Source of the DNA: Elusimicrobiota bacterium | GTDB lineage: Bacteria > Elusimicrobiota > Elusimicrobia > FEN-1173 | NCBI GenBank assembly: GCA_016715645.1 | Contig: JADJZR010000007.1 | Location: 116,221-180,220 of the forward strand | Direction: 5' to 3' | DNA length: 64,000 bases | Part shown: piece after piece, positions 10,406 to 34,027 of the stretch | Layout of the letters: every line of letters begins with the position of its first letter | Numbering within the stretch: position 1 is the first letter of the stretch | The notes under the pieces: model-generated | The model's input: only the letters and a program-made list of their open reading frames with translations | Database searches by the model: none | Told to the model about the DNA's origin: nothing | Program-made: the position numbers and the translations under genes

Positions 10406-10441
10406 CGCCGGATCTCTTCTCTCACGCGCATTTTAAGAATT

Positions 10442-15900: not shown

Positions 15901-18900
15901 TTGCCGTGGAGTAGGGCTTTGCGATCAAAGGTTTCACACCGGTTTCGGATGCAGAGAGGAACGCCGTTTCTTTTTCTTTGGCGGGCAATTTAGCGAAATC
16001 CACGATTTGTAAGAGGACACCCCTCCCTTGCGTTCGACCCAAAGCTTCCCTTTCCGCTTCGGAAACCCCCTCCGTAGCCTCTCCGCGAGAAAGCCTGCCC
16101 GCCTGGTTAGCCCGAGATTTGCCCCTCTCAGGCGTGGTAAAGAAATATTGCCGAATTTCTTTGTCATTTCCCGATCCACGGAAGTTAACCACTTCTCCAT
16201 CTGCAAGATAACATTTAATTCCAGTTTTAAAGTTCATGCGAACGATGGGAGAATCGGCTAAAACGTTGGCTAACATCCCCTCCAGCAACCTTTTCTTGCC
16301 AACCATTAATTTAGCTTCATCGCTCTCGGCATTCCACACTTTAATTTGGTCTTTATTGTCATCGAGAAGAACAACGGAACCGTCGTTACTGAATTCCACC
16401 CACACAGCCTTGTCCACGATAATCCCATTTGTTGTGGGTGAGAATGTATTCTGCATGATCGCATTAAATTCTTTTTGATGTTCTCCGAATTCATAGCGCA
16501 CAACCGAAGACTCACCGGGTAAAGGGCGAACATCGTTATCGACTATGTCAAGAAGGTCCCTTTTCTTTTCACCGGCCAGGGACAGAACAGCCAGTTCAAC
16601 CACGGTCGCGTCTCTCGTGGGAACAGCCTCAAGATTTCCAATTTTTGTTGCCGTTAAAAATCCTCCGTTCGCTTCCCCACCAACCACCATGTCATATTGC
16701 CCCCCTTCGACGGCTGCGTTCATGGAAGCAATAACATACGGAGACCCCACGTCCGTTAAAGCCACCGTAAAACCTTCGCGCTCAAGGTAAGCCACAACCC
16801 CGGGATTCACTGTGTTTGGCAAGGAAATGTGGGGATTTCTTGCGCCGCTCTTCTCTTTTAAGTAGACCGCCGTCAATGCCACCAGGACATCGCCAGGGAC
16901 AAACCGGAAAGAAATTTGATCCCCGTTTCGGACGACAACCAAAACGAGCGGTCTGTCAGAATCGCCGTCAGTGGAAAAAATGTAGCGCACCGTATCGTTC
17001 AGGTTGAGTTGTCTGAAAATAGCCAAAATCCTGTTCAACTGTTCCTGTGTAATACCTTCGGTATCAACCGGAACAAAATCATCAGTTGCGCCAAAACCAA
17101 CGACCGTGGAGATTCCCTTTTCAACCTTGGAACGATTAAGAAAAACTCGCACAATGTTCTGGACCATTTCACGCCCAACAGCGGAATGTTCGTAGAAGGC
17201 GGCACTGGGAAGACCAGCCACGGGGCCAAAAAATCGACTGTAGCGCCGTTCGGACGTTTCCCTTGCCTCTTTCTGATAGTCCCTGATTTGGTCTGGTCTT
17301 GGTACACGGGTGGGTTTCAACAGACCGTAATCGTCAAATTGAGAATCTTGGAGGGTCCGGCGATACACTAATTCACTTATTTTTTCAGCGGTTAATCTGG
17401 CGATCGTAGCGTTGTCATCTGGAGTTGTTTCTCCGACAGCGCTCCCCCCTTTCATTCCATTAAGCCCCGTTTTGATATGACTTCCAGTCACCATAAAAAA
17501 CAGGCCCTTTGCCTGCATTGCAACGTAGGTCAAAAATGGCGTTGGGATTCTTCCGCAGTAGAAGGGTTGACCTTCCATGTCAAGGATCGCGCGGGCCACG
17601 GCGGTCTCCATCCGTTTGGTGGAGGGCCGATTGTCTCCGCCAAAATAAATTTGGCTGCCGGTTTCACTTCCAAGATGAGAAAAATGGGTGCGCGCTACGG
17701 CGTAGGCGGCAAGATCGGTTAACTCGTGCTCGGGCCCACGCACACCGCTGGTCCCAAATGCGGGATAATTTGGGAAATAAATCATGGCTTGGATTAAATT
17801 CTGGGCCTCCCGACGGCGGAGTTCTGGGATCAACATTTTAAGATTTGTTCCCCGAGGAACCGTTTTTTTACTAAGGTAGGAAGTCACACCTTGGGAAACT
17901 ATCCTCTGTTTGGTTTCCCCCGTGAGTTTAATGTTAGCGTAGGAGGCCAAGAGATCGTATTTATTTTTTTCTTGAGATGAAACTATTTTAACCATAAACA
18001 TATGGATCGACATGGCCTGATCAGCGATACCTCTCATGTGATCTGTTTGTCCCTGGTACATCATGGCATGGAAAAACTGGCGGGACCTTTCTCCCAGGCT
18101 CGACCCTAAATATTCTCGGCTGTATTGGTCGTTTAGCAGGTTGCCAACTTCGGCGACGTACGCCTCGGCCATTTTTGAGTCTTCCAGGGCGAGACTGTTG
18201 AGCGAACCAACCACGTCGTCAACGCGTCCCTCGCGCAGGTCCACCACAAGCTGCCGAATCCCAGGAAGCTCAATTTGACCTAATGCAAAATCAATGCTTA
18301 GGGCGGTTTTAAGGGCACCCTGGACGTCTTCAAGTACCCGTCTCGTTCGAATCAATCGCCCCCTGTATGGATTTCCGATTAGACCGGCACCCGCGACAGC
18401 AGCATCCAAGCTTAATATGGCCCTTCCAAGGCTATCCACTTGGTCTTGGTAGGCTTTTTTCCTGTCGGTCTCCGTGTCGTTACTATGCGCACTAACGAAA
18501 CGACTCAAGGTGACAAAAAGTTTTTGAGAATAATTGGGATCCTTAGCGATCTGGGCAATGTCCAGGACGAACGCATCCGGCTTTCTTGGATCGGGTTTCG
18601 TGGTCTCGCTTGCGGCCAAACGAAGGTCTTGAATCCACGTGGAACCTTGTTGAGGAATCGCTTTGATTAATCGGAGAAGATCCCCGACAAATTCGTTCCA
18701 GTTGTTGTCCATTGAAGGTTCACCCAACGAAGGATTCATTCTTCTGAAAATTTGGGCCCCACGTGATTTTGTTGCGCCAAGAACAATCAATTCGAGTGCC
18801 GCCTGTTCAGGCTTCCCCGTTTTGATAAGGGATAAAATATCTTCAGCCGCCTTAGGTACGTCAACAACTGGTTGGATTAAATCGCTACCTACCATAACGC

Positions 18901-20920
18901 TGTTTATATTATTAAGCGATTTGATTAAATTATTCAATTGGCCGGCAATTTCGCCTGTCCCAAAAACCCCGTTTCTTTGCAAATTATCAGCAAAGGAAAT
19001 AAAGTTGGACCGATATTCAACCCACTCAGCCCGAAGTTCGCCTGATCTCATCCCTATAAGCCTGAGGATATCTGCACGCTCTGCTTGTTCTATACGCCCA
19101 AAATTAGAGGCAATAGCATTAACTTCCTCATCGGTTGTGGCCAACGCCAACCGCACAATAAAAGAATTGGCAATCCTCGTCTTTTCCGATTGCGCCATCC
19201 CACCCTGGGCTACGTAACCACTGTCTACCCTAGGAGGATTGCCAGCATTATCGTAACCCAGGATTTCCCCACTCGAAATTTGTCGACTGGTTTCGCGTAT
19301 GAGCCGAATAGTATAAGGACGGACAAACAACCCTTGAATATCAACAGAAGAAATCCCGGCACTTTCAAGATTATTGATGACCAGTCCGGCAACATCAATA
19401 ACGTCCCCTAAATTGCCGTCCCGTTGCAATTCAAAAAGACCACTAACTAAACGACCTACACCCACAACAAAACCTCTTTGTTCAATTGCCCCGGAATTGA
19501 GCTGTTGTTGGAGCGTTTGAAGTTCCTCAAAGATTTCCTTCGCCTTGTCCTCTTTGGCTTGGTAAGGCATTCCGTCCATGGCCATGGGTTGCACTGGAAC
19601 GGTGGCTCTGAAAAGAGTTGCTTCTCCTTTTGTGGAAACTATTCTGTATCCAATTCCTTTGGGAACCATGACCGTCTGTCCACGAGTCAGAGTTAATTTA
19701 CTCCCATCATCCATTTGGAGCAGTAAAGGCATTTCCGCTTCAAGGACGATTAAAGTTTCAACATCGTGATATGGGGGTTGATTGTGGTTTTGCCCCATTG
19801 CAATATTTATCCGACTCAACTGAAATTCAGGCACGTCTCCGAGTTCGCGGTAAACTGTTTCTGTTTCCGCCACCTGAACCCCATCCCGCACCAACGGAGG
19901 TTCGCCTTGGAAAACCACGGTGTTCATCAGTTCAGGAACGTCCACATGCTTTGGCGTCAAACCACCGCGAAGAACGTTGTTCGAGTTGGCCATGATTTCC
20001 ATTCCGACCCCATCCAGATACGCATGGGGCACACCCGCACTCAAATACATGGCCTGCCCTGGATTCAAACGAATAAGGTTTAACAGATATACCGAAAACA
20101 CCCCCCGATCGTGGTGTCCCTCTGTAGAAAACTCAGCATCCGAACGAAGAACCCAGTATTCGGCTGAGTTTTTGGGAAACGGGGTCTTATTGTTAACCTC
20201 ACGCAACCGCTGGATTAGGGGAGATAAAATGGTGTTTACTTGTTCTTGGGGAAGCCCCATTATATTCCCATAAAGAGTTTTTAAATTCCCTTCAGACGGC
20301 ACTGAAACAAAATCAGTTGCTCCTTGAATGGTCATCAGTTCCGCATTTGCATTGATCGCCCCTGCAATTTCGTTTAACGGCCTGAAACCTCGAAGACCAT
20401 AAAATTCGGTCACCGCAACGATCAGTTCCGGTTTGTGATTGGGATCTTTGTAATTCCGATTTCCAGCCCTAACATCTATCCCTTCTTGATTTTCCCTATC
20501 AAATCCAGCTTGCGCTTGCTCCGCGTTCGGGTGCACCTGGATGGAGAGAGGTTTGCCCGCCGCCAACACCTTAAAGAGGAATGGCAGTTGTCCGTTGTAA
20601 AGTCCCCGAGCGTGGGGAGACATGATCCCCTCTCCGGCCCGCTCGACCAAACGACCCATATCGATCTTTGTGCTTTTAGGCAAAATAGCCGTTGAGGGGA
20701 GATCCGGATGGGCTCCTATCCAGACCTCCGCATATGGGCTATCGCCCGCTGGAATGCCCAACAGATTCGGGATAAACGCATCTTCTCCCCGTTGTCCCCA
20801 AGCGTAATTTTGGACCCCCGTTTCGAGAATTACGGGGTAAGGTCTGGCGGCATATTCCTCTAAAATGCGAGCCTTTTGGCGAAAATTAAAAAATGTTTTC
20901 GATGTCGGAACCTTTCCCAA
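12920..20920 (-). CDS. Giant multidomain protein: type I phosphomannose isomerase + unknown ~600 aa + phosphomannomutase + 2 TM helices + mannose-1-phosphate guanylyltransferase + unknown ~400 aa
   Basis: Uninterrupted 2666 codons. PMI motifs: LSIQVHPN, YKDPNHKPE, VPHAYL, EIMANSNNVLRGGLTPK. Phosphohexomutase motifs: FGTSGVRG, TGSHIK, FSTDGDSDR, GGEANGG, RGSGNDKEIRQYF. TM segment at aa 1676-1728. GMP motifs: ITLAGGASSRFWPL, LIEPGRRNTLPAI, LTADHII, WNSGMLVF, EWIDIGSF. Confidence 0.9.
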   Translation of the reverse strand: MGKVPTSKTFFNFRQKARILEEYAARPYPVILETGVQNYAWGQRGEDAFIPNLLGIPAGDSPYAEVWIGAHPDLPSTAILPKSTKIDMGRLVERAGEGIMSPHARGLYNGQLPFLFKVLAAGKPLSIQVHPNAEQAQAGFDRENQEGIDVRAGNRNYKDPNHKPELIVAVTEFYGLRGFRPLNEIAGAINANAELMTIQGATDFVSVPSEGNLKTLYGNIMGLPQEQVNTILSPLIQRLREVNNKTPFPKNSAEYWVLRSDAEFSTEGHHDRGVFSVYLLNLIRLNPGQAMYLSAGVPHAYLDGVGMEIMANSNNVLRGGLTPKHVDVPELMNTVVFQGEPPLVRDGVQVAETETVYRELGDVPEFQLSRINIAMGQNHNQPPYHDVETLIVLEAEMPLLLQMDDGSKLTLTRGQTVMVPKGIGYRIVSTKGEATLFRATVPVQPMAMDGMPYQAKEDKAKEIFEELQTLQQQLNSGAIEQRGFVVGVGRLVSGLFELQRDGNLGDVIDVAGLVINNLESAGISSVDIQGLFVRPYTIRLIRETSRQISSGEILGYDNAGNPPRVDSGYVAQGGMAQSEKTRIANSFIVRLALATTDEEVNAIASNFGRIEQAERADILRLIGMRSGELRAEWVEYRSNFISFADNLQRNGVFGTGEIAGQLNNLIKSLNNINSVMVGSDLIQPVVDVPKAAEDILSLIKTGKPEQAALELIVLGATKSRGAQIFRRMNPSLGEPSMDNNWNEFVGDLLRLIKAIPQQGSTWIQDLRLAASETTKPDPRKPDAFVLDIAQIAKDPNYSQKLFVTLSRFVSAHSNDTETDRKKAYQDQVDSLGRAILSLDAAVAGAGLIGNPYRGRLIRTRRVLEDVQGALKTALSIDFALGQIELPGIRQLVVDLREGRVDDVVGSLNSLALEDSKMAEAYVAEVGNLLNDQYSREYLGSSLGERSRQFFHAMMYQGQTDHMRGIADQAMSIHMFMVKIVSSQEKNKYDLLASYANIKLTGETKQRIVSQGVTSYLSKKTVPRGTNLKMLIPELRRREAQNLIQAMIYFPNYPAFGTSGVRGPEHELTDLAAYAVARTHFSHLGSETGSQIYFGGDNRPSTKRMETAVARAILDMEGQPFYCGRIPTPFLTYVAMQAKGLFFMVTGSHIKTGLNGMKGGSAVGETTPDDNATIARLTAEKISELVYRRTLQDSQFDDYGLLKPTRVPRPDQIRDYQKEARETSERRYSRFFGPVAGLPSAAFYEHSAVGREMVQNIVRVFLNRSKVEKGISTVVGFGATDDFVPVDTEGITQEQLNRILAIFRQLNLNDTVRYIFSTDGDSDRPLVLVVVRNGDQISFRFVPGDVLVALTAVYLKEKSGARNPHISLPNTVNPGVVAYLEREGFTVALTDVGSPYVIASMNAAVEGGQYDMVVGGEANGGFLTATKIGNLEAVPTRDATVVELAVLSLAGEKKRDLLDIVDNDVRPLPGESSVVRYEFGEHQKEFNAIMQNTFSPTTNGIIVDKAVWVEFSNDGSVVLLDDNKDQIKVWNAESDEAKLMVGKKRLLEGMLANVLADSPIVRMNFKTGIKCYLADGEVVNFRGSGNDKEIRQYFFTTPERGKSRANQAGRLSRGEATEGVSEAEREALGRTQGRGVLLQIVDFAKLPAKEKETAFLSASETGVKPLIAKPYSTARKLAVGIPSIVFATGVGFIFVANAIPFVGGLLIWSLGLLAVIALPYTGVALMAYRALKVPFEGEGNIKDLADGFRRFSYDPTFDQNSNEATLKIGKRTVTVKFGRPTDARWFAETTRTDTTASITVRPETPAWLLPIVLSQEIYRVDWWKGVQSTFDFLLGLPDVTSSPAWWIAKIKKQAADTDTRAPPDQPTADMTRVASITLAGGASSRFWPLNKTLSELSGMGVTMIQATFRRVTEKISGAFSSFIDVKNFFIVAGSDVETPLKNQLPDMPLENLLIEPGRRNTLPAILFAMANIKKQNPNATLTMLTADHIIPDTEQFRRTMDKAIALAQDPKANNIVTIGINPIDLKTGEVAPPAEWTPFGAIEANTQSQVGVGYKIKLFTEKPSAELAGQMVQEQETGDATRYWNSGMLVFSIESMEKALEKFQPELFAKYEALVKAIQDGEMENARNIFNSFPSKIKHPTEDRQVHNSVDYALLVPMTLETEDSGVQGIVVPGSFEWIDIGSFDALRKVKSIPTDEHGNRRIGAGSTTGSKDTILVADTEREIAVEGVDDVAVVFSNMGQLLVIQTSLAQGVKNVKEAYDKDSETPTVVWDSKMTIQADGAGVTVIGADSQKVRVLGVENISITFEGNKVTVRNTALFPTRPALLSVTDQVVPAATVQQFGREKGVKVEPVQTPNTLPSFIRYSGEGTVAPPAARAAKKFDTLTADVFLRANAYWTDGELGEFTQWARTPKNKPTAQKLFLDVAFTLARLHGHNRTSTGNYSAERQRNEMIALAVLADQMGMSDESRSHALGLYSREAAVQTIAARNNENGRVDDVQHQFMLAPVVRGEDGNVGWDPAAGEDGINRWKKELREAEEKATVTLFLMSGDTSITPSELEGFLKAQQVESRGPMQGTFFVHQGNYLTDDGRIDFGGVVGSLAPVHKILTSGTIAIVSMYENRFSFDNMPEGFARENLLVYIINMLGKLTQAGTSIETDVNSLRLSFIAA

Positions 20921-23519: not shown

Positions 23520-23741
23520 CATTTTTGTAAACTTTTTGGGGTCAAGTCTTGAGTTTGTTCCTGTGTTCCGTAACATCAAAAGGAACAATTTGGGAACGCA
23601 AAAGGATGCGCCGTCGGAAGGCCTTTTAAAAAAATGGCTCAGACCGTTGGGCCGTTATGCCCGGCGGGCCCCCTGGGGGTCGGCCACGCGGCCCGGGCGC
23701 AACGTGATTGTGGGAATGCCGGCGTTTGTCCGGCATTCGCT

Positions 23742-25025
23742 TTACAACATCGGCCGTGGGGCCGTTTCGGACGGGAGGGTTTTTCCACCCGTTTTCTCCA
23801 CAATGACGTAATGGACCATCTCGCGGCCCGCGTCATTGAGGATATAAAGCTCCGTGTGGGGGCGCCGGGGGCCCGTGGGGGGCCGGATGGCCACGGTGAT
23901 CTTGCGACGTAACGCCGCCCCCGGCGCCGCGTAGGACCGCCCCTGATACTGAATCCGACCGCAGTTATCCACATACCGTTTGTGATGGATGGCGAAAACC
24001 AGGTCCAGTGTCCCGGTATTCGTGAGGGGCCGCAAATACGTTCGGTTTTCTTGGATAGCACGGGCCCACCGCTTATTCGGCGTTTCTTTGGTTTCGTCGT
24101 GCAAGTGGTATGCGTTGTAGTAGGCCACTTCATCCGTCAGGATCCGGTTCGCTTCGGCCAAGCTTTTGGTTCGGTATCGTTCGCACAACAACGGAATTCG
24201 CCTCTGGAAATAGTCAAACCGCTTCTCGATTTTTCCCTTCGCCTCCGGATACCTCTTCGCCGTGAATTTCACATCCACCTGTTGTGTCCGAAGCGCCCGC
24301 ACAAACTGGGTCTCGATGTCATCGGGATGTTTGAAAATCAGGTGGTTATCCACGTAATACGCCAGCGGGCACCCCACCGTTTCCAACGTCGTGCGCACTT
24401 GCGTCAAATGATCCCATGCCGTCTCCTGCTCCACCAGCAACCACCCCACCACTTTGCGACTGTGATCGTCTTCCGTCATGATCAGATCACTGTGCGCTCC
24501 CGTGTGCGGGAGCCAGACATGGGTTGAACTATCGTGTTGGAACAACATCCCAATCCCGTTCTTTTCAAACCGGATATAGGGTTTGCCCACCTTATCGACG
24601 CCCGGTTCGTAGAGCCCTTGCCCGATCGCCCAACGTCGGATCGTGTTGCGATGGATCCTTTGCCCGTAACGCCGCTGGCATTGCTGCGCCAAAAACGCGA
24701 AGTTGATATGCCCACGGAAAAACGGCGATTCTTCCCGGTAATAGCGGATCTCCTCCTCCACATACGCCCTCACAGCTTGTGACAACGCGTTACGTCCGCT
24801 CCCTTCCCGTCCATACAGCCAATCCGGCGACGGTTCTTGTCCGCGGATCTTTAACCACTTCTGTTTCAACTTATTGACCCGGCTTCGGCCCACATTCAAC
24901 AATTTCCCCGCCATTTCTTCCGTCAATTGCCCGACCGCCACCCGTTGGACCAATTGCCACACCAACCGCCAGCTCATCCGTTTATGAAGCTGTTGTTTGC
25001 CTCCAACGGGCCCCTTACGCGTCAT
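23742..25025 (-). CDS. DDE transposase, integrase-core (rve) type with N-terminal HTH
   Basis: The catalytic-triad context is FQHDSS, YYVDNH and PEAKGKIEKRF. I estimate roughly 50% identity to the ORF at 26265..27575. The track ORF extends to 25130, but alignment with copy 2 favours the start MTRKGP at 25025. Confidence 0.85.
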   Translation of the reverse strand: MTRKGPVGGKQQLHKRMSWRLVWQLVQRVAVGQLTEEMAGKLLNVGRSRVNKLKQKWLKIRGQEPSPDWLYGREGSGRNALSQAVRAYVEEEIRYYREESPFFRGHINFAFLAQQCQRRYGQRIHRNTIRRWAIGQGLYEPGVDKVGKPYIRFEKNGIGMLFQHDSSTHVWLPHTGAHSDLIMTEDDHSRKVVGWLLVEQETAWDHLTQVRTTLETVGCPLAYYVDNHLIFKHPDDIETQFVRALRTQQVDVKFTAKRYPEAKGKIEKRFDYFQRRIPLLCERYRTKSLAEANRILTDEVAYYNAYHLHDETKETPNKRWARAIQENRTYLRPLTNTGTLDLVFAIHHKRYVDNCGRIQYQGRSYAAPGAALRRKITVAIRPPTGPRRPHTELYILNDAGREMVHYVIVEKTGGKTLPSETAPRPML

Positions 25026-25260
25026 GTTTTTCCACCCGGGCCTGTGGCTCCTGCGGCCTTCCCATCGATGGACCTGCCGATCTCTCCTGGTTTGGATACA
25101 AGCGTGACAACACGATCCGCCACGTCTCATCCCACCACCGTCGGCGATCCTCCCAGATCAACTGGTCCACCACCGATGAACAACTTCGCCCTTCATGCCG
25201 CGCTTTTTTACACAACAGATTCCACGTGCACCAGGGCAACTCAATTCGTATCCGTTTCAT
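25015..25260 (-). CDS. Ribbon-helix-helix (CopG-like) small protein of IS copy 1
   Basis: 81 aa, MKRIRIELPWCTWNLLCKKARHEGRSCSSVVDQLIWED. This fits a beta-strand plus two-helix RHH layout and resembles MKRLVVHLADELYDPLEREAHKRGTTLTEMVSTYL of copy 2. It overlaps the transposase start by 11 nt. Confidence 0.5.
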   Translation of the reverse strand: MKRIRIELPWCTWNLLCKKARHEGRSCSSVVDQLIWEDRRRWWDETWRIVLSRLYPNQERSAGPSMGRPQEPQARVEKHDA

Positions 25261-25295
25261 GGGGCCTCCTTTTGCCTCTTCTCAGCCCCATTCTT

Positions 25296-25697
25296 TCACG
25301 TCACTCCACTTCGCGCCATATCGTTTTGTTTTGCAAGAATCATCCCGCGGTATTTCCCGTCGGTAAACCGCGTCCACTCGTTTTGTTTTGCAAGAACCCC
25401 TCTTTTTGTCGCGTCTCGCCACTTTTGGCCTTGGCGATTGCGTTCCACGTAGCCCGGGTGCTGAGCTCTCCACTCTCGCCAGTATTGCGGGTGCGCGGCT
25501 CGCCACTGCGCCAGTTTCGCCCCGCGGCTTTCGTCATACCCGATGTTTTTTATTCGCCAGTCCATTTGCACCCGGCGGCGTCGCCACGTTCGGCAGGGTT
25601 CTTTATCACAGGTGATTTGTTGACGGTAAGTTTGCGCACAAGGCAGGAACAGCTCTCCACAACAACGACATTTCTTTCGGCGTCGGCTCATGGACAT
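25296..25697 (-). CDS. Cys-rich zinc-ribbon-like basic protein of IS copy 1
   Basis: 133 aa. CRCCGELFLPCAQTYRQQITCDKEPCR and QWRAAHPQYWREWRAQHPGYVERNR are conserved in copy 2 (CRVCGELFSPYSRSHRRQKVCSKESCR and AWRKKNPGYWREWRNKHPAAVERNR). Confidence 0.6.
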   Translation of the reverse strand: MSMSRRRKKCRCCGELFLPCAQTYRQQITCDKEPCRTWRRRRVQMDWRIKNIGYDESRGAKLAQWRAAHPQYWREWRAQHPGYVERNRQGQKWRDATKRGVLAKQNEWTRFTDGKYRGMILAKQNDMARSGVT

Positions 25698-26049
25698 TCA
25701 CCTCCCCCACAAGCCTACACCCTCTTTTTACCCAAATGCCCGAAATCTAAACCAACCTAAATCCAATCACACCCTCAACTTCAAAAACAGAGTTCCCCCA
25801 GAATTCAACCCCAACTCCCCTTGTCTCCTTTGCGTTCCCACCCGCCTCTTTTGATGGTTACGGTACACTTGAGTTTGTTCCTGTCCTGTCGCGTCAAAAC
25901 GGGACAAATGGGAAGGCAAAGCGGGACACCCCGGACGAGCCTAAAAAACAGCCCCGGACGTGCAATGGGTCCCGCCTTCCCGGTGGGCCCCTCAAGGGGT
26001 CGGCTCCAACCGCGGGAAGTGGGTGATGAGACTTTTTCAGAATAGCTGG

Positions 26050-26268
26050 CTAAATGGGTTTCGAGCCGCTCGCACCGCCAGGGGAACTTGACGACGGTCG
26101 CGCGTGGTAAGCCTTGCATCTCTCCCAGATATATTCGAAATAGACCCTCGGAAATTCACGCCGCAAATAGGTCGACACCATCTCCGTCAGGGTCGTTCCC
26201 CGCTTGTGAGCCTCTCGTTCCAATGGGTCATATAGCTCGTCAGCCAGGTGGACAACCAGCCGTTTCAT
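26050..26268 (-). CDS. Ribbon-helix-helix (CopG-like) small protein of IS copy 2
   Basis: An internal ATG of track ORF 26050..26583 gives the 72-aa protein MKRLVVHLADELYDPLEREAHKRGTTLTEMVSTYLRREF... The start overlaps the transposase stop. Confidence 0.55.
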   Translation of the reverse strand: MKRLVVHLADELYDPLEREAHKRGTTLTEMVSTYLRREFPRVYFEYIWERCKAYHARPSSSSPGGASGSKPI

Positions 26269-27575
26269 GGCCGCGTCTCCCTCTCCGGGGGCAAAGACCT
26301 CCGACGTGTCTGCGGCACAATAAAGTGCGCCAGCGTGCTCCCCCGCCAAATCACGGAAATCTCCGTGTGCGGCCGCCGTGGCCCCGTCGGCAGGCGCAGG
26401 GCCACCGTCACGGTCTGGCGGATGGGCGCGCCTTTGGGAATTCTCCATGTTTGACCACCGAATTCGATGCTCCCCGTCTTGTCCACCACACGCTCGTAAT
26501 GCAACGAGAAAACAAGATCCATCGGCGTTTTGGCCGGAATATCGTTCAAATAGGCCCGCCCGTCCTCCAAGGCTTTCTTCCATCGTTTATCCGGAATTTC
26601 TCCCGTCTCCGCATGCGGGTGTTTCTCGTTGTAGAACGCCACCTCCTCACGCAAGAGCTCGTTGGCTTTCGCCAGAGTCGTGATCTTGTATCGTTCGCAC
26701 AAATACGGAACTCTCGACTGAAAATACCCAAACCGTTTTTCAATTTTTCCCTTCGATTCTGGACGGCGGGGCCCCGCCAATTTCAACGTGATGTCCAAAC
26801 TCTTCAGTGCCCGCGAAAACTGCGTGTGACCTTCTGTCGACGGGGCAAAGATGCTGTGGTTGTCGGTGTAATAGGCCAACGGACATCCAAAGAGCTCCAC
26901 CGTCGATCGCACAGTTTGCAGGTGGTTCCAGGACGTGTCCTGCTCCACCAGAATCGCGCCCACTACCTTGCGACTGTGGTCGTCTTCCGTCATGATCAGC
27001 ACATCGTTTCGTTGGCGCGCCGGAACCCACCCGTGAATGGAACTGTCGTGCTGGAACAGCATCCCGATTCCGCCCATCTCGAAGAGAATGAACGGTTTTC
27101 GACACGTGTCCACCGCAGGGTCGTAATACCCCTGCGCGATCGCCCACCGCCTCAGCGTATCCCGCTGAAACCGCTTGCCAAACCGTTGTTCGCACTGTTG
27201 CGCCAGAAACGCAAAGTTGTAATGCCCACGAAACGGCTTCGGCGCTTCTGTCCGAATGTAGTTCAACTCCTCTTCCAAATACCCGCGCACCTCCGATGGT
27301 AACCGCCCCGCCCCGGTTTCTGGGCGTTGATACAACCACCCTTCCCTCGCACCCTCCCGCCACGTTTTGAGCCATCGGTCCTTCAGCACATACAACCGCG
27401 TTCGGCTGATCCCCAACCATTCCATCGCTTTGGCCGGCGGCATTTTCCTCAGTACGAACTGCTCCACGATGTTCCATACCGTCCGCCAGCTCATTCGCCG
27501 ATGCAACTGGTCCCGACTCCGATGGGTTTTCACTCCCTTGCGTATCCGTTTCTCGTCCATGGGCCCCTCCTTCAT
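26265..27575 (-). CDS. DDE transposase, integrase-core (rve) type with N-terminal HTH
   Basis: 436 aa with FQHDSS, YYTDNH and PESKGKIEKRF. Paralogue of 23742..25025. Confidence 0.85.
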   Translation of the reverse strand: MKEGPMDEKRIRKGVKTHRSRDQLHRRMSWRTVWNIVEQFVLRKMPPAKAMEWLGISRTRLYVLKDRWLKTWREGAREGWLYQRPETGAGRLPSEVRGYLEEELNYIRTEAPKPFRGHYNFAFLAQQCEQRFGKRFQRDTLRRWAIAQGYYDPAVDTCRKPFILFEMGGIGMLFQHDSSIHGWVPARQRNDVLIMTEDDHSRKVVGAILVEQDTSWNHLQTVRSTVELFGCPLAYYTDNHSIFAPSTEGHTQFSRALKSLDITLKLAGPRRPESKGKIEKRFGYFQSRVPYLCERYKITTLAKANELLREEVAFYNEKHPHAETGEIPDKRWKKALEDGRAYLNDIPAKTPMDLVFSLHYERVVDKTGSIEFGGQTWRIPKGAPIRQTVTVALRLPTGPRRPHTEISVIWRGSTLAHFIVPQTRRRSLPPERETRP

Positions 27576-28050
27576 TTTTTAACTCGGGGCGCATTCTCTC
27601 ACCTTCTCGGTGCGCACGTCCATCTCTTTTGTTTTTGCAATCTTCATTGCGACCAGGGACATCCTCAATCCCCTTTGTTTTTGCAATCACGCCAAGAGAT
27701 TCGATTCGACGCATCTTTTCGCTGTGAATCCATTCCAATCCCCTTGGTTTTGCAATCACGCCCCTTTTTTCCCGATTTCGCCTTCTTTGGTCTTCTCGGT
27801 TTCGCTCCACCGCGGCCGGGTGTTTGTTTCGCCACTCCCGCCAATACCCCGGATTCTTTTTGCGCCACGCCGCTCTCTTCTCCGCGCTCGCGCCTACGCT
27901 CAATGGATTTTTCTCTCGCCACAGGCGCCACAATTCAAGCGCCCTCGCTTTTCGGCAGGATTCCTTTGAACAGACTTTTTGTCGTCGATGGGATCGGCTA
28001 TACGGGGAGAACAGCTCGCCGCAGACGCGGCACGTCTTTCGTCTCTTCAT
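26740..28050 (-). CDS. Zinc-ribbon-like protein of IS copy 2; only the first ~150 codons (about 27600-28050) look genuine
   Basis: The N-terminus is homologous to 25296..25697. The frame has no stop until 26740 and therefore runs about 835 nt across the transposase gene. This could be stop loss, a frameshift, or a programmed fusion. Confidence 0.35.
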   Translation of the reverse strand: MKRRKTCRVCGELFSPYSRSHRRQKVCSKESCRKARALELWRLWREKNPLSVGASAEKRAAWRKKNPGYWREWRNKHPAAVERNREDQRRRNREKRGVIAKPRGLEWIHSEKMRRIESLGVIAKTKGIEDVPGRNEDCKNKRDGRAHREGERMRPELKNEGGAHGRETDTQGSENPSESGPVASANELADGMEHRGAVRTEENAAGQSDGMVGDQPNAVVCAEGPMAQNVAGGCEGRVVVSTPRNRGGAVTIGGARVFGRGVELHSDRSAEAVSWALQLCVSGATVRTTVWQAVSAGYAEAVGDRAGVLRPCGGHVSKTVHSLRDGRNRDAVPARQFHSRVGSGAPTKRCADHDGRRPQSQGSGRDSGGAGHVLEPPANCAIDGGALWMSVGLLHRQPQHLCPVDRRSHAVFAGTEEFGHHVEIGGAPPSRIEGKN

Positions 28051-28380
28051 GGGGGTTCACATCCCCATCAAGATTACAGCTTTATTTTATCGGGAACACC
28101 GGGGTAGAGAGGAACTTCCTTGACCCTTCTTTTGAAACCTTTCAGAAAGAACCTGTCAAAAATTTAGACCAGCGCTGAACCCTGTCCCGTTTTCAACGCG
28201 ACAGGACAAGACGGATTACACAGTGTTTCAACCAGGTTCTTCAGGCGATTTGAGCACGATTTTGTGTTGGTAGCGGGGCCGGCACTGAGACTGAATCCGG
28301 GACGTGTGTGTTCCCGCAGGGAGGAAGGCTTTCTTGTATAATTTCTTCGTGGTCAAGTCGTTCACTCGGGGGGAGTATCC

Positions 28381-28677
28381 ATGGCCAACTCAATCAAAAA
28401 AAATCTGATCCCTTTTGCCGCGAAATACGTCTGGTGGAAATCTCCCGACGAAGCGATTGAATACCCAGAACGCGTGGTGGCCTATGTGCTGAATTCAGGG
28501 ACTTTTGAAGATGTTCAAAAAATTGTCGGCCTTATGGGCGAAGACTACTTGAGAGGGGTAGTGGAACGCGCGGAGGTTGGGTGGTTTAATGAAAGATCGT
28601 GGCACTACTGGCACTATCGGCTGGGGATGGCCAAACCAAACGAAGTCCCCGAAATGAAACGGCGGAGAGTCGCTTGA
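28381..28677 (+). CDS. Small protein, putative antitoxin partner of the AbiEii-type nucleotidyltransferase
   Basis: 98 aa. TATAAT at 28337-28342 and GGGGGGAG before the ATG. Its stop overlaps the TTG start of the next gene (TTGA at 28674-28677). The W-rich pattern YVWWKSPDEAIEYPERVV...GTFEDV...GEDYL is one I recall from small ORFs preceding AbiEii genes. Confidence 0.55.
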   Translation: MANSIKKNLIPFAAKYVWWKSPDEAIEYPERVVAYVLNSGTFEDVQKIVGLMGEDYLRGVVERAEVGWFNERSWHYWHYRLGMAKPNEVPEMKRRRVA

Positions 28678-29369
28678 TAAAAAGATTCAAACCTATTAAA
28701 CGCGTATTGCCGAAAGCCCAGTTGAGCCTCTGGCCTCAATTAAAACCCACAACGACTCTTGGCCTTGTGTTGTATGGCGGTACAGCCATCGCCCTTCGAC
28801 TTGGACATCGCTCGTCGGTTGATTTCGATTTCTTCACGAGCGCCCCTTTGGATAAAAAAGCGATTCGTGACCGCCTCCCAATAGTGAACCGGGGCGAAGT
28901 GACCCAAGAAGATCCAAACACGTTAAGCCTCCTTACTCATCCGGTTGGCCTCGAAAGCTCGAACGTAAAATTATCTTTTTTTGGCGGGCTTCGTCTGGGA
29001 CGCGTGGGAACACCGGAGAGAACGCAAGATGAGGTTCTCGATGTGGCCTCCTTGGACGACTTAATGGCAACGAAGTTGGTCGTTATTATGAACCGCATCG
29101 AATCAAAAGATTACCAGGACATTGCGGCCATGATTAGCGCCGGTGTGCGGTTGGATAAGGGGCTCGCGACCGCGACCTTAATGCACCCCCACGCTTTTCA
29201 ACCTCAAGAAAGCCTACGCGCGTTGACTTTTTTTGAGGGGGGAGATTTGAAAAAACTCTCTCGGTCCGAAAAAACGACCCTTATCGAAGCATCACGGAGT
29301 GTTCGAGACCTCCCACCCCTCCCACCCCTGACCCCCTATTTGGGGACTGAACCTCTTCTCTCTGAATAA
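28674..29369 (+). CDS. Nucleotidyltransferase AbiEii/AbiGii (DUF1814) toxin family protein
   Basis: LVLYGGTAIALRLGHRSSVDFDFFT is the family-typical GGTAL..R.S.D.DFF block. The true start is probably TTG 28674 (LIKRFKPIK) rather than the out-of-context ATG at 28599. Confidence 0.75.
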   Translation: MIKRFKPIKRVLPKAQLSLWPQLKPTTTLGLVLYGGTAIALRLGHRSSVDFDFFTSAPLDKKAIRDRLPIVNRGEVTQEDPNTLSLLTHPVGLESSNVKLSFFGGLRLGRVGTPERTQDEVLDVASLDDLMATKLVVIMNRIESKDYQDIAAMISAGVRLDKGLATATLMHPHAFQPQESLRALTFFEGGDLKKLSRSEKTTLIEASRSVRDLPPLPPLTPYLGTEPLLSE

Positions 29370-29614
29370 TAAGGGCCCGCGCAGAAATAAGTTGAACATC
29401 TGGCCGAGTTGATTTTGAGCCGAGCCGACGCGACGAGAGGCGAGCATACCGTGGGGTATGTAAGCCGAGCGACACAAAGGCGCAGGCCAAATGTTGAAGT
29501 TATTATTGAACGGCTCCTAAGGGCCTGTGACGACGTGACCGATGATCAACGCCAGCAAGGGCCCAAATCTTTGCAACAAGTTTGGAACGCGCTTCGTAGA
29601 AAGGGTGGGAAGAT

Positions 29615-31594
29615 TCACGGAGACATCCATTCCCAGGCACTGCGGTGTTCGCCGTGGGTTTGGACATAATCGAGGAACGCTTCGTAGAATTTGTGGCGGC
29701 CGATGGTGGCGGAATCGCCGACCACAATCAACAGACGACGCGCGCGGGTCATGGCCACGTTCATTCGGCGGGTGTCCGACAGAAAACCCACTTCTCCGGT
29801 TTCGTTCGACCGCACCAAAGATAAAAGAATAACCTCTTTCTCCCGGCCCTGGAACCCGTCCACGGTTCCCACCTCCAGTTTCGGGGGCACCGCGTGCCTT
29901 AACTTTCGCACCTGGGCCGCGTAGGGGCTGATCAACGCCGCCCAATGGGGTTTCACGCCCGCTTCAGCCAGTTCGTCCCATAACTTCAACACCAGGCGGG
30001 CTTCACCCTCGTTTTCCCGGCTGTCCAACAGCTCGTTCCACGTTTCCGAATAACCCGTCCCGGCGGTGTCGATAAAAATCAGCCGTGCGCCGGTCAAACC
30101 CGTCGGTGTCACGTGGGGGATGTCCAAAAGCGAATGATCTTTCACGGTGTCGTGGGCGATCAGTTGATTTTTATAAAACTGCGCCGACGAAAAACCCATA
30201 ATTTGTTCGTTCATCCGATACTGGACGCGCAACAGGGTTTGAAGTTGGTCCGGCAAAGTGGGCTGGAGCCGTTCCATCAGCGTGGTGCGAAGGCCACGGT
30301 CCCCGGCTTCTTGGGAATGGATCGTGGGCGGCAACTGCAACGGGTCCCCCGCCATCACCACTTTGCCCGCCAACAAAATCGGGATCCACGACAGGGGTTC
30401 CGTGGATTGGCTGGCTTCGTCCATGCACACCAAATCAAACCGTTCCGAGGCCAAGATCTGCCCGATCCCCCCATGGGTCGCCAGCACCACATCCGCTTGA
30501 TGAATGATCCGCTTTGAAATGGATTTTTCCATGGCCCGGGCTTCTTTCCAGAGGGCTTTGATTTCTTTCTTCAGCGCCTTGTCTTCTTCCATGGTCAATC
30601 GCCCGTGTTTGCGCAGACGTTGAACCGCCAGCCGTTCGCGATCTTGGTCCATGAGTCGAATCACTTTTTGGTCCGGATGTTCGTCCAGTTGGGCCATCAG
30701 GGTGGCGTGACGCAAATTCTCTAAAATCCTCGCCGGGTGGCCCAACCGGACCACGTTCAGGCCCGCGTCCAATAACTTTTCCAACATGTTATCCACCGCA
30801 ATGTTCGACGGCGCCGTGGCCAGCACGGATTTCCCTTGGGCCACCGTTTGGCGAATGATCTCGGCCAACACGGTGGTTTTGCCCGTCCCCGGCGGCCCAT
30901 GAACCAGCGCAATATCCCGTGCCGCCAAAGCCGACCGCACAGCCTGCCGTTGAAACTCGTTAAGCCGTTCGTTAAAAAACGGTCCTGACACCGACGAGGG
31001 GGGAGCAGCGTTTTCTGGGACGGTGACATTCAAGTCCCTCACCTGTCCCTTCGGGACATCCTCTCCCAAGGGGAGAGGAATGGCCTGGCCCAAGGCCGGG
31101 GGCCTGTTGCCGAGCAGGATGTCGCGCAGTTCGCCCAGCCGACCCTTTTCGCGCAAGGCAATGTCCAACGCCCGGCGCATGCGCTTGTAGGTGGCGTCGG
31201 ATCCCAGCAAATCAATCCGGCATTTTCCCGTGGGTTCTTCCAACAAATCGTCGTTAAGAGCCACGGTCACGCGGTAATCTTCCACGGAATATAACGTCCC
31301 GTCCCTGGAAAAGTCACCGTTCACAAACGTCACCCGCACCAGGTCGCCCTGGTCCATGGCATGAAACGGGGAGAGGGCTTCGCCCTGGGCTGGACGGGTG
31401 AGCACAAGAAGGGGCATGTTGCCCACGCCCACGTCCCGTTGCTCAATGGTCAGTCGGGTCACCGTTTTGCCCAACTGCTCGCGCATCTCAACGGGCCAAC
31501 GGTCCAGTTCCCGTTTGTTTTCCTCTTTTTCCGCCTCCCGCTCCATTTCGAGCAGGTCCATGAGGGTGTTAAAATGAAGATCGGGATCGATCAT
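29615..31594 (-). CDS. Superfamily 1B helicase, Upf1/IGHMBP2 (DNA2/NAM7)-like
   Basis: 659 aa. Walker A HGPPGTGKTT, motif II CMDEASQ, then VDGFQGREKEVILLSLVRSN and RRMNVAMTRAR. It has an N-terminal beta-barrel-like region as in IGHMBP2. Confidence 0.85.
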   Translation of the reverse strand: MIDPDLHFNTLMDLLEMEREAEKEENKRELDRWPVEMREQLGKTVTRLTIEQRDVGVGNMPLLVLTRPAQGEALSPFHAMDQGDLVRVTFVNGDFSRDGTLYSVEDYRVTVALNDDLLEEPTGKCRIDLLGSDATYKRMRRALDIALREKGRLGELRDILLGNRPPALGQAIPLPLGEDVPKGQVRDLNVTVPENAAPPSSVSGPFFNERLNEFQRQAVRSALAARDIALVHGPPGTGKTTVLAEIIRQTVAQGKSVLATAPSNIAVDNMLEKLLDAGLNVVRLGHPARILENLRHATLMAQLDEHPDQKVIRLMDQDRERLAVQRLRKHGRLTMEEDKALKKEIKALWKEARAMEKSISKRIIHQADVVLATHGGIGQILASERFDLVCMDEASQSTEPLSWIPILLAGKVVMAGDPLQLPPTIHSQEAGDRGLRTTLMERLQPTLPDQLQTLLRVQYRMNEQIMGFSSAQFYKNQLIAHDTVKDHSLLDIPHVTPTGLTGARLIFIDTAGTGYSETWNELLDSRENEGEARLVLKLWDELAEAGVKPHWAALISPYAAQVRKLRHAVPPKLEVGTVDGFQGREKEVILLSLVRSNETGEVGFLSDTRRMNVAMTRARRLLIVVGDSATIGRHKFYEAFLDYVQTHGEHRSAWEWMSP

Positions 31595-31872
31595 GGGGAA
31601 GGGCGATGGGTCGCATCAATGATTTTCAATGACTCGATCACAGACAGGTTATCGGTTGGCAGGCAAATAACTCTTTCCTTTCCGAAATCATTTTGGAGAG
31701 ACGTGAGCACTTCGTCGAGCCAGGAAGGACCGACGGCCAAAACCCCGCTGAAATCCAGTTCGACCTTCTCACGGGGCCCCGGACGGAGGGTGGACTTCAT
31801 GACAAGGGCCGCCTCTCGCCCGGCCGGGCGCGATGACAGAATTGTTCCGAATTTTTTAATTTGGATTTTCAT
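31591..31872 (-). CDS. STAS-like (DUF4325-type) small protein
   Basis: The internal ATG at 31872 gives the 93-aa protein MKIQIKKFGTILSSRPAGREAALVM...ELDFSGVLAVGPSWLDEVL. It has ATGA overlaps with both neighbours. Confidence 0.65.
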   Translation of the reverse strand: MKIQIKKFGTILSSRPAGREAALVMKSTLRPGPREKVELDFSGVLAVGPSWLDEVLTSLQNDFGKERVICLPTDNLSVIESLKIIDATHRPSP

Positions 31873-32654
31873 TTCAGACTCCACACGACCAGCGTAACGG
31901 TGCCCGGCCAGGGGGTGGTCGGCTTCTCTAAATAGGATCGGCATTCCGGCCCCAAAGGTCCGTAATCGACAAGGCCTTGCCCTGAACGGCAGGCAATACC
32001 GCACTGGGGATACAACGAGAGGGTTCCCCTGACAAACTTTAGACCATTTCCCCTATTTTCGGGGGCTCGGCCAGAAATAACCTGCTCAAACGCCACACGC
32101 AGAGCCTCTTGCTCGCCCACTATTTTCGGCAACACGCGCTCAATGGATCGGAATATTCCCTGCCCCCGGTCAGCAATGAGTGTCCATGCTTTTTTTCCGG
32201 TCACCTGGATTTCGAACCAACATCCCGGGCTGTCCCTCCACTTTCCAAGATTGTGGTCAAAACAGTTGTTCCCAATCTCTCCAACAGCCGAGATAAGCAA
32301 GGGAATTTCACGATCCGACAGACCCTCTTTTGATAGGGCTGAAATTCGGGCCAACCGGCCCAAAAACACATCCCGGGATTCGCACACCCATTGCGAGGGA
32401 CTTTGACCGGGAGGAGCGGCCGACGTCGCCCACCGGATGGCCGCATCGAATCGGGGAATCCCGGCGACGACATAGCGCGTCGTGGGCCCCCGGCCCACCA
32501 CCTCCAATTTTCCCGAAGAAAGCAAGGCGCGCAAATGGTAATGCACCGCCTGCGCGGTAACGCCCAGGTGACGAACCATCTCCACAGGCCGGACCCCCTC
32601 GGCGCACCGGGATCTGATCAGAGCCATGATTTTACGACGGGTGTCTGTTTTCAT
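31869..32654 (-). CDS. Winged-HTH + GHKL (SpoIIAB/RsbW-like) ATPase/kinase
   Basis: 261 aa. HTH segment VEMVRHLGVTAQAVHYHLRALLSSGKLEVV. N box EIGNNCFDHN, G1 ADRGQGI, G2 NRGNGLKFV. Confidence 0.65.
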   Translation of the reverse strand: MKTDTRRKIMALIRSRCAEGVRPVEMVRHLGVTAQAVHYHLRALLSSGKLEVVGRGPTTRYVVAGIPRFDAAIRWATSAAPPGQSPSQWVCESRDVFLGRLARISALSKEGLSDREIPLLISAVGEIGNNCFDHNLGKWRDSPGCWFEIQVTGKKAWTLIADRGQGIFRSIERVLPKIVGEQEALRVAFEQVISGRAPENRGNGLKFVRGTLSLYPQCGIACRSGQGLVDYGPLGPECRSYLEKPTTPWPGTVTLVVWSLK

Positions 32655-32658
32655 ATTT

Positions 32659-32672
32659 TATAGTTTACTATA
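32659..32672. promoter_or_regulatory. Palindrome TATAGT-TT-ACTATA in the AT-rich leader of the GHKL/STAS/helicase operon (candidate operator)
   Basis: tatagtttactata is a perfect 6-2-6 inverted repeat starting 5 nt upstream of the start codon at 32654. It sits inside a roughly 50-nt AT-rich gap. Confidence 0.3.
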
Positions 32673-32714
32673 AATTATAAACAATAATACAACGTCGAGA
32701 ACGGATTCCCATTA

Positions 32715-33071
32715 TCAGGGCCGTTGGATTTGAATACCGGCCCAGGCCAGGCCGGGAAGAGCGCGCTTTTTGACAAGGACCGTCACTGAATTTAAACCGT
32801 AAGCGCCCAGCAACAGGTCGGCGGCTTGTTCGGCCACGGCTTCCGCCAGTTTAAATGTGCGGGGTTCCAACGTGTTTTTAAGTAACGAGCACGCCGCGGC
32901 GTAATCCACGGTGGCATCCAAGGAATCGGTTCGGCCCGCTTCGTTCAGCGGCAAATGCAGAGCCGCGTCCATTTCAATTCGTTGGGCAAAGGCCCGCTCG
33001 GCGTCGGTGCATCCCACTTTCAGCCACAGTTCAAGGCCGGACAAAATAATTTGGTCGGTTGGTTGAGTCAC
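32715..33071 (-). CDS. folB: Dihydroneopterin aldolase
   Basis: 118 aa. ILSGLELWLKVGCTDAERAFAQRIEMDAAL...TVDYAAACSLLKNTLE...FKLAEAVAEQ fits the FolB pattern. Confidence 0.75.
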   Translation of the reverse strand: MTQPTDQIILSGLELWLKVGCTDAERAFAQRIEMDAALHLPLNEAGRTDSLDATVDYAAACSLLKNTLEPRTFKLAEAVAEQAADLLLGAYGLNSVTVLVKKRALPGLAWAGIQIQRP

Positions 33072-34027
33072 GGTTTTAACCCCACGTATTCCAGTTCCAG
33101 GGGTTCGGGACCAATATTTTCAAAGTAGTAGGCCGTGTCGGGTGGAACCGCCACGTATCCGTATTGGATTTCGGTTTCGCTTTGGCCCAGGTAAGCCACC
33201 CCTTTGCCCCGGCGCGGACGAAAAACCATTTTGGCTTTGTTTTCCCGTAACGTCACCGTCCGCGCCCCCACCGGCACAAGGAACCCGCCCGACCGGATCG
33301 GCTGGGCGTCAGGAACTAAATCCAAGGATCGGTAAAACGTCTGAACGTCCGGATCCGCCTTCAAACTATGTTCTTGAGGCACCACAACTCGAACCGACAC
33401 GCCGCGGGTTTTTTTGGGCGTTATTTCACAGGCTTTTAGCAGGGCCACTTCGTCTCGCAAGAGGGCTTCGTTAAGGCCCCGCTCCCCCGGAGGCGTGTTG
33501 TAAAGCAGGTCTAAAATTGTCCGTTCCCGCAGTTCTATAAAAGCGCCTATTGTCTCCCAATAAACCCGACTCTCACTAGGGGGGCCTTCGCCCCCGGGGC
33601 GTTCGCCCCCTTTCACTTCGCGAGGGGTTGCGGTCTTTTCCAAGACCTGGTCGCGCAAGAGTCGGGTTTCGGACTGGTAGCGAACCCACTTTTTTTCAAC
33701 CAGGGCCCGTGCCTCGGGATCCTCGGCCGGCACTTTTCCGAGCGTGGCGGTTCTCTGCATTTTTTGACAAGCGCCACGCAGGCGCCGAAGGTCCTCTTCC
33801 AAAGCAACGGAATTCACCTCGCCACCCGAACTAAACTCTTCATGCAAAACGCGTACTCTTTTTTCGGCGGAGACCATCACTTTTTCATAGTCCATGGGCG
33901 CCGATCGAATCCGTTCGACCGCCAAACGGCGAACATCCTCCTTTTCAGAAACAAAACTCCCCCGGTCCAGACCATACAGGAAGGCCACTATCATCACCAA
34001 CGAAACCGTAACGAGTGTTTTCATCAC
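33068..34027 (-). CDS. Membrane-anchored hypothetical protein with a cupin-like C-terminus
   Basis: 319 aa with an N-terminal TM helix (LVTVSLVMIVAFLYGL) and C-terminal YYFENIGPEPLELEYVG. Confidence 0.45.
   Translation of the reverse strand: MMKTLVTVSLVMIVAFLYGLDRGSFVSEKEDVRRLAVERIRSAPMDYEKVMVSAEKRVRVLHEEFSSGGEVNSVALEEDLRRLRGACQKMQRTATLGKVPAEDPEARALVEKKWVRYQSETRLLRDQVLEKTATPREVKGGERPGGEGPPSESRVYWETIGAFIELRERTILDLLYNTPPGERGLNEALLRDEVALLKACEITPKKTRGVSVRVVVPQEHSLKADPDVQTFYRSLDLVPDAQPIRSGGFLVPVGARTVTLRENKAKMVFRPRRGKGVAYLGQSETEIQYGYVAVPPDTAYYFENIGPEPLELEYVGLKP

Follow-up and report, generated by a model that had tools for sequence, protein, structure and literature searches.

Do three genes that overlap one another end to end form one system? 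The question is raised by a 64-kb stretch of an Elusimicrobiota genome (contig JADJZR010000007.1 of GenBank assembly GCA_016715645.1). This whole stretch is referred to below as the window, and coordinates are window positions unless another locus is named. On its minus strand lie three genes joined by ATGA stop/start overlaps at 31869-31872 and 31591-31594: G1, encoding a winged helix-turn-helix (wHTH) protein with a GHKL (Bergerat-fold) kinase-like domain; G2, encoding a STAS-like protein of the DUF4325 family; and G3, encoding a superfamily 1B (SF1B) helicase of the IGHMBP2/Upf1 type. An earlier note on this DNA had taken the three for a single conflict or signalling system, in which a partner-switching kinase/STAS pair gates or reports on the helicase and which might serve in defence. 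Our analysis indicates instead that the locus is probably a composite of two independent things, a regulatory cassette (G1, G2 and the operator-like palindrome ahead of them) and a resident helicase. The pair and its operator are a real, widespread and so far uncharacterised variant that has been inserted upstream of the helicase, which we consider likely to be a downstream passenger or a regulated target of the switch, not one of its partner proteins.

The sequence features from which the three-gene reading had been built are all present. Besides the two overlaps, these include an AT-rich leader with a palindrome ahead of G1, the motifs EIGNNCFDHN, ADRGQGI and NRGNGLKFV in the G1 translation and the motif ELDFSGVLAVGPSWLDEVL in that of G2. 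The assignment of G2 as a STAS-like DUF4325 protein is backed by Pfam (PF14213, E=5.6e-8, 32.8 bits against a cut-off of 23). G3 matches the IGHMBP2-family model TIGR00376 over its full length (509.1 bits against a cut-off of 348.9) and contains AAA_11 and AAA_12 (about 1e-55 each in Pfam) together with the SMUBP-2 1B domain, in the manner of IGHMBP2/Upf1-like SF1B helicases. The features are listed in Table 1.

Conservation of the pair and history of the helicase junction

We surveyed the conservation of the three genes in a sample of 85 loci, composed of 79 distinct loci collected with the G1 profile from contigs of one genome per species and six more obtained by contig look-up. A profile scan of all open reading frames (ORFs) placed G2 directly after G1 in 84 of the 85, the lone exception lying at a contig edge. 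G1 and G2 are thus a conserved unit, in agreement with their earlier description as a GHKL-kinase/STAS-like pair of the partner-switching type, and this unit is found in Elusimicrobiota, Bdellovibrionota, Myxococcota, bins labelled Gammaproteobacteria and many Patescibacteria (for example Magasanikbacteria). The triad fared differently. A G3-like helicase lies within 10 kb of the pair in only one of the 85 loci, that of a 94%-identical relative (L007), which limits the three-gene arrangement to the immediate clade of the window. Clustering of all neighbours in the 79 profile-derived loci returned no third recurrent family, and in 33 of 73 loci the gene downstream of the pair is on the opposite strand, so that the pair often stands alone.

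The surroundings of the pair do not suggest a role in defence. Its 139 immediate neighbours are spread over 137 Pfam families with no defence enrichment, and only two families recur next to it, RmuC (six cases) and AAA_14/DUF4143 (five cases; PADLOC candidate PDC-S01). Recurrent PADLOC matches among the neighbours amount to cross-hits of RmuC and the five PDC-S01 loci, and a single related locus was found among 2.9 million viral contigs. PADLOC and NCBIfam scans of G1 and G2 themselves returned weak HTH matches, with no defence model or named family. The AAA_14/DUF4143 ATPase, whose five loci include L020, L048, L054 and L026, is the sole recurrent defence-linked neighbour.

Nor does the helicase satisfy the models of the defence systems that it partly resembles. 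Its match to the MkoA model of Mokosh (3.8e-90) covers only model positions 597-1099 of 1112, which is the generic SF1B core, and it scores 229 bits with PLuB, for which the cut-off is 999, and 49 bits with Hhe, for which the cut-off is 2000. The core of G3 thus resembles the helicase modules of MkoA and PLuB, whereas the extra domains of MkoA, Hhe and PLuB are not in G3.

The identities of G3 follow the pattern of a single-copy gene that is passed on vertically within Elusimicrobiota. Its homologues in this phylum have the start MIDPD.HF in common and form a smooth identity gradient (96, 91, 83, 80, 75 and 70%, down to about 55%), unlike those of G1, which fall from 98 and 90% straight to about 60%. 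The helicase is present without the pair in two loci, L086 and L087, in the latter beside (after) an RNase II/R gene, and in L089 (OY969767.1, 2.7 Mb) helicase and pair are about 230 kb apart in the same genome. Within the protein, residues at about 168-205 (window 30980-31091), between the 1B/stalk region and the first RecA domain, are hypervariable in length and sequence and differ even among orthologues that are 91-96% identical.

Comparison with L086 explains how the helicase came to adjoin the pair. This locus, with a helicase 83% identical to G3, has the gene order ABC, FtsX, GDSL, folB, helicase, with 26 bp between folB and the helicase and with G1 and G2 absent; the same genes flank the pair in the window. 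In a blastn alignment of the two, homology through folB stops at 32722 and restarts in the helicase at 31593. Only 33 bp separate these points in L086, and the window has 1128 extra bases, comprising the leader, G1 and G2. The cassette is thus an insertion, since L086 has folB beside the helicase without the pair. The gene folB is thus the neighbour that keeps its place upstream of the helicase, and it marks the ancestral junction.

Two other relatives show further changes at this place. L088 (JGI 3300056831 Ga0558120_00509), with a helicase 91% identical to G3, shares the order ABC, FtsX, GDSL, folB with L086 and has a deletion, corresponding to window positions 31921-32702, that removed the leader and almost the whole of G1. 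What is left of G1, 19 codons from its 3' end, precedes an orphan G2 (L088:6675-7004), which is still fused to the start of the helicase. L007 has about 500 bp extra between folB and the G1 leader (L007:9468-9967), containing an ORF of 98 amino acids (aa) that is GIY-YIG-like. The folB-helicase junction looks like a recurrent insertion site.

Because the triad is not conserved and the helicase is an independent orthologue of the lineage, we reject the three genes as one system; both are outcomes that the earlier note had itself named as refuting its reading. What survives of the idea that the switch gates the helicase is a weaker form, a probable influence on helicase transcription; the helicase as a partner protein does not survive. 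Since the insertion brought the stop of G2 into overlap with the start of the helicase gene, transcription of the helicase now probably begins at the regulated promoter of the cassette, with translational coupling to G2. Between G2 and the helicase we found no terminator-like site beyond chance expectation, and co-transcription of the helicase with the cassette is plausible. Tight ATGA coupling can stem from a recent insertion and is no proof of a functional system.

Table 1. Features of the locus in the window, with the match or method that identifies each.
Feature	Position	Strand	Remark
G1, winged-HTH and GHKL (Bergerat-fold) kinase-like protein	31869-32654	-	261 aa, ORF
G2, DUF4325 STAS-like protein	31591-31872	-	93 aa from an ATG inside a longer ORF; Pfam PF14213
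G3, IGHMBP2/Upf1-like SF1B helicase	29615-31594	-	659 aa; TIGR00376
Operator-like palindrome core	32657-32674	-	imperfect arms reach about 32686
Inserted cassette (leader with operator, G1 and G2)	31594-32721	-	blastn against L086
folB (dihydroneopterin aldolase)	32715-33071	-	Pfam FolB, 2.1e-21
AbiEii-family nucleotidyltransferase gene	28599-29369	+	Pfam 2.1e-16

The operator-like palindrome and the two proteins of the pair

Two bases ahead of the G1 ATG, the leader contains the palindrome TTTATAG-TAAA-CTATAAA. It is present as a single copy in the 64-kb window, where no additional operator copies were found, and was matched in 0 of 100 shuffles. Alignment of the regions upstream of G1 across the loci gave the consensus AGTTTATAGTTTA-nnn-TAAACTATAAACT, of which the window copy is a slightly degenerate version. 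For scoring we used the 12-mer palindrome core TAAACTATAAAC, allowing up to two mismatches between -60 and +5 of the G1 start. The palindrome occurs in 43 of the 51 loci with a wHTH-bearing G1 and in none of the 28 with a wHTH-less G1 (Fisher p=1.6e-14), against a background of about 100 matches to TAAACTATAAAC in 1.1 Mb. The other eight wHTH loci have variant palindromes. Both arms are changed together in L030 (TACAG/CTGTA) and in L024 and L036 (TTGATAG/CTATCAA), and the left arm is overlapped by a canonical TTGACA-17-TATAAT promoter in several loci from Patescibacteria and gammaproteobacteria. This is the pattern expected of a dimeric wHTH autorepressor, for which binding to the palindrome is predicted. 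A reading of the palindrome as an RNA hairpin was ruled out by the conservation of its sequence, and not of pairing alone, across phyla and by its tracking of the wHTH; an Rfam scan of 29300-33200 returned no matches.

Five loci depart from this scheme. In L062, L075, L078, L081 and L083 the G1 homologues have another N-terminal module of about 55 aa, and upstream of them are direct repeats of the type ATAGATTTAC and no palindrome. The ATAGATTTAC-type repeats suggest a different DNA-binding domain and operator in these loci.

In the AlphaFold model of G1 (AF2, pLDDT 85.3), residues 1-65 form a wHTH, which a linker of about 50 aa connects to a C-terminal Bergerat-fold GHKL domain (about 115-261). 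The fold of this C-terminal part matches CheA P4 (E=3e-4), other histidine kinases and SpoIIAB (1tid_C, TM 0.62). Pfam returned weak HTH matches only for G1, with no match to HATPase_c, and a sequence search of the PDB with the G1 profile found wHTH repressors only. The residues of the GHKL boxes are strictly conserved: E126, N130 and H134 of the N box, D162-x-G164-x-G166 and R201-G-N-G204-L-K206 are invariant in 83 of 83 homologues, with G202 and G204 listed among the invariant positions. We found 2947 homologues of G1, and a profile search of 1.84 billion representatives gave 270 clusters (at 50% identity) with E<=1e-10; family members are mostly from Elusimicrobiota and candidate-phyla bacteria. 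The family has three architectures, namely the wHTH with the core (about 255 aa), the core only (about 200 aa) and the core with the other N-terminal module of about 55 aa. Based on these conserved features and on the model, we propose that G1 is an operator-binding autoregulator as well as a kinase acting on G2. One Elusimicrobiota single-cell genome (L014) carries two G1-G2 copies within 7 kb on opposite strands, at 2992-4041 (minus) and 10001-11040 (plus) of that locus.

G2 is a single STAS-like domain of 93 aa (AF2 pLDDT 90.5). Its homologues are 59-72% identical to the window protein, with a mean column identity of 62%, and 82 of 82 homologues share seven invariant residues (S14, R15, P49, S50, W51, E54 and N75). 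A sequence search of the PDB with the G2 profile found nothing meaningful. In L088, the relative that has lost G1, the Ser50 of the orphan G2 is replaced by Ala (GPAW), a natural experiment that supports a link between the kinase and Ser50. By conservation, and by analogy with the systems discussed below, G2 is the proposed phospho-acceptor partner of G1, with Ser50 as the acceptor.

Relation to CapK/CapS, VapKSC and SpoIIAB/RsbW

Two described systems join a GHKL kinase to a STAS protein in ways that bear on this locus. CapK is an HTH-STAS-GHKL kinase and CapS a STAS-wHTH repressor; single-stranded DNA (ssDNA) activates CapK, CapS is then phosphorylated at Ser54, a proven phospho-site, and the downstream operon is de-repressed, with 348 of 443 capKS loci preceding immune operons (Chambers et al., EMBO J 2026, PMC13373217). 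In VapKSC, the kinase VapK phosphorylates the STAS antitoxin VapS, by which the VapC nuclease is released (PMC13373217). An older survey had found PIN.4 nucleases coupled to DUF4325 genes (PMC5499597). For comparison, the sequences of CapK, CapS, VapK and VapS were taken from the appendix of PMC13373217.

The resemblance to CapK/CapS is extensive in layout. In both, the gene for a GHKL anti-sigma-type kinase is followed by that for a STAS-domain protein, and the cassette lies directly upstream of another gene and is co-directional with it. One protein of each pair carries a wHTH, which in CapS binds palindromes in its own promoter and here is predicted to bind, and a palindromic operator-like site precedes the pair itself (43/51 against 0/28 loci, as above). 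Both STAS proteins have an invariant Ser at the position of SpoIIAA Ser58, S50 of G2 being aligned by hhalign, with weak statistics, to S54 of CapS; phosphorylation of G2 is predicted. The proteins differ considerably, however. CapK, at about 345-360 aa, has the order HTH-STAS-GHKL, whereas the 261-aa wHTH-GHKL protein G1 has no room for a STAS domain and is without the internal STAS domain at which, at the STAS/GHKL interface, CapK binds ssDNA. The DNA-binding wHTH is carried by CapS in the one case and by the kinase in the other, where G2 is a bare 93-aa STAS protein. CapS has no DUF4325 match and its similarity to G2 is marginal, and capKS loci mostly stand before immune operons whereas the neighbours of G1-G2 are diverse and mostly housekeeping genes.

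VapS, like G2, is a DUF4325 protein (PF14213, E=2.7e-17, 62.7 bits, cut-off 23) encoded right after a GHKL kinase, and for that reason we place the pair near the VapK/VapS class. The hhalign alignment of G1 (residues 108-260) with the GHKL domain of VapK spans 143 columns, among them the N, G1 and G2 boxes; the alignment with CapK covers the region from the N box to the G1 box only. VapKSC nevertheless differs from the pair in several respects. No VapC/PIN gene accompanies G1-G2 in the 79 loci, and in the window a helicase lies downstream. VapS has 116 aa with a C-terminal inhibitory tail, and G2 has 93 aa without the tail; VapK begins with a STAS domain and lacks a wHTH such as that of G1; and the context of the acceptor is ASPF in VapS but GPSW in G2.

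The SpoIIAB/SpoIIAA and RsbW/RsbV pairs likewise consist of a small Bergerat-fold serine kinase and a single-domain STAS partner that has a conserved Ser where helix 2 begins. Their N, G1 and G2 boxes are invariant in G1, and the fold of G1 matches SpoIIAB and CheA P4. However, a sigma factor and a PP2C phosphatase are not recurrent next to the pair in the locus neighbourhoods, the output domain here is a wHTH fused to the kinase, and G2 is a member of DUF4325 rather than of the canonical STAS family.

Judging from sequence and domain order, the G1-G2 pair falls within the kinase-STAS class to which CapK/CapS and VapK/VapS belong but has a new architecture, and we count it neither as CapKS nor as VapKSC. 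The earlier note had not recognised the combination as a named system. This holds for the architecture, which is absent from the 2026 paper, but a related named class does exist. To that class the two-gene core adds a third architecture, in which the DNA-binding domain is on the kinase.

A proposed switch, its rivals and the surrounding genes

We propose that a dimer of G1 binds the palindromic operator, which would overlap the promoter of its own operon, and thereby represses it. The GHKL domain would bind G2 and phosphorylate the invariant Ser50, and the state of G1-G2 binding or phosphorylation would switch DNA binding by G1 on or off in response to a signal. The helicase would be read from the regulated promoter of the cassette and be translationally coupled at the G2 stop. 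In this scheme autoregulation by the pair, with co-transcription of the helicase, is probable. Given that the cassette brings an operator with it and that the stop of G2 and the start of the helicase overlap, an effect of the switch on transcription of the helicase is likewise probable in this lineage. Such control would be a "controller of adjacent pathway" arrangement like that of CapK/CapS (PMC13373217). The operator, the invariant Ser50 and the natural variant with G1 deleted and Ser50 changed to Ala together make a test system for the direct control of transcription by a GHKL/STAS pair.

Several points weigh against this interpretation. The hhalign comparisons of G1 and G2 with CapK, VapK, CapS and VapS are in register at the motifs and statistically weak (E=0.015-0.13), and no protein of CapK or VapK length is among the top 150 matches of the G1 profile. 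STAS proteins are among the top matches in a fold search with G2, all of them non-significant (E>=0.4), and a scan of the window's own G1 leader found no sigma-70-type promoter. Whereas the genes, the history of insertion and deletion, the conservation of the pair, the association of the operator with the wHTH and the invariance of the catalytic and acceptor residues are observations, G1-G2 binding, G2 phosphorylation, DNA binding by G1 and the effect on regulation of the helicase are predicted by conservation and analogy. Finally, at least three sequenced relatives keep the ATGA overlap by which G2 is coupled to the helicase, so that selection for co-expression is possible.

An alternative that we regard as tentative takes the cassette for a portable promoter module like CapK/CapS that responds to stress, possibly to DNA damage, with the helicase as its selected regulated target rather than an accidental passenger. 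CapK/CapS do regulate a downstream operon, with ssDNA as the activator (PMC13373217), and at this locus the G2 stop and the helicase start overlap. In addition, DNA repair genes are over-represented downstream of the pair: they account for 9 of 29 genes lying on the same strand within 200 bp downstream, compared with 7 of 92 upstream or opposite-strand genes (p=0.003), and for 8 of 14 when the same-strand distance is limited to 20 bp (p=4e-5), or 4 of 10 at that distance with RmuC collapsed to one event (p=0.011). The downstream same-strand genes for DNA repair or recombination are five for RmuC, one for an AddB-like nuclease followed by a UvrD/AddA-like gene, and others for an ExoIII-like protein, RuvC and UvrD. 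We regard this enrichment as suggestive, given that the repair category was set after seeing the data and that phylogeny was handled crudely; it becomes weaker once phylogeny is considered, the five RmuC loci forming one Patescibacteria-like clade. Tightly coupled downstream genes also include some without any connection to repair (IleRS, hemerythrin, a PNP_UDP_1 phosphorylase and DUF6973), and the frequent opposite-strand orientation of the downstream gene (33/73 loci) also argues against a promoter module. So do the lack in G1 of the internal STAS domain at which CapK binds ssDNA and the history of L088, which lost G1 and the promoter but kept the helicase.

More speculatively, the cassette may be a portable autoregulated stress switch, possibly responding to DNA damage or ssDNA, that makes adjacent DNA-processing genes inducible in Elusimicrobiota, Patescibacteria, Bdellovibrionota and Myxococcota, with the kinase and not the STAS partner as the DNA-binding repressor. 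The genes so controlled would include those for RmuC, the AddAB-like pair, ExoIII, RuvC and UvrD and, in the window, the IGHMBP2-like helicase. If true, phyla with few cultivated members would possess a local regulator that resembles SOS but is built on a kinase, and if the link to repair genes holds, it would constitute an unrecognised damage-response circuit in poorly studied lineages.

We consider it unlikely that G1 and G2 are a selfish two-gene toxin-antitoxin or abortive-infection module, with a kinase toxin and a STAS antitoxin or the reverse, that is functionally unrelated to its neighbours. Such a module would account for a cassette that was recently inserted and then partly deleted in a close relative, for the two copies in the L014 genome and for the position of L001 beside VapBC and HepT/MNT pairs. 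Tight autoregulation through an operator is typical of toxin-antitoxin loci, and DUF4325 is the antitoxin in VapKSC (PMC13373217) and is coupled to PIN.4 nucleases (PMC5499597). However, neither protein has a recognisable toxin domain or matches a PADLOC model beyond HTH, both are very strongly conserved (59-72% identity for G2), which is unusual for such pairs, and the pair is widespread in the reduced genomes of Patescibacteria, where it lies among housekeeping genes.

A conflict or anti-phage system made up of all three components, with the helicase protein gated by the kinase/STAS switch, is already largely refuted and in our view very improbable, for although all three genes are joined by ATGA overlaps, the helicase core matches part of MkoA and PLuB, AbiEii and insertion sequence (IS) elements lie downstream and a DUF4325/GHKL pair acts in the defence toxin-antitoxin system VapKSC (PMC13373217), the triad is confined to one clade, the helicase is a graded orthologue that passes TIGR00376, falls far below the PLuB cut-off, meets MkoA in the generic core alone and occurs without the pair, L088 dropped G1 and kept the helicase, and the pair has non-defence neighbours and is nearly absent from viral contigs.

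The AbiEii gene and the IS elements that had been cited as neighbours are both there, the latter including a copy with an rve-type integrase. A 98-aa ORF overlaps the start of the AbiEii gene (module 28381-29369, plus strand); it has no family match and is possibly an antitoxin. In L086 and L088, genes other than AbiEii lie after the helicase. The IS-like elements are two in tandem, at 23563-25868 and 25879-28211, each with inverted repeats at its ends (40-nt arms that are 70% complementary and 21-nt arms that are 86% complementary). The second has the integrase match, a weak one, at 26265-27575, and the first contains an unannotated 462-aa ORF (23742-25130) and a shared 144-nt segment at 74% identity. 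Farther away, a 2666-aa ORF occupies 12920-20920 on the minus strand, in a lower-GC part of the window.

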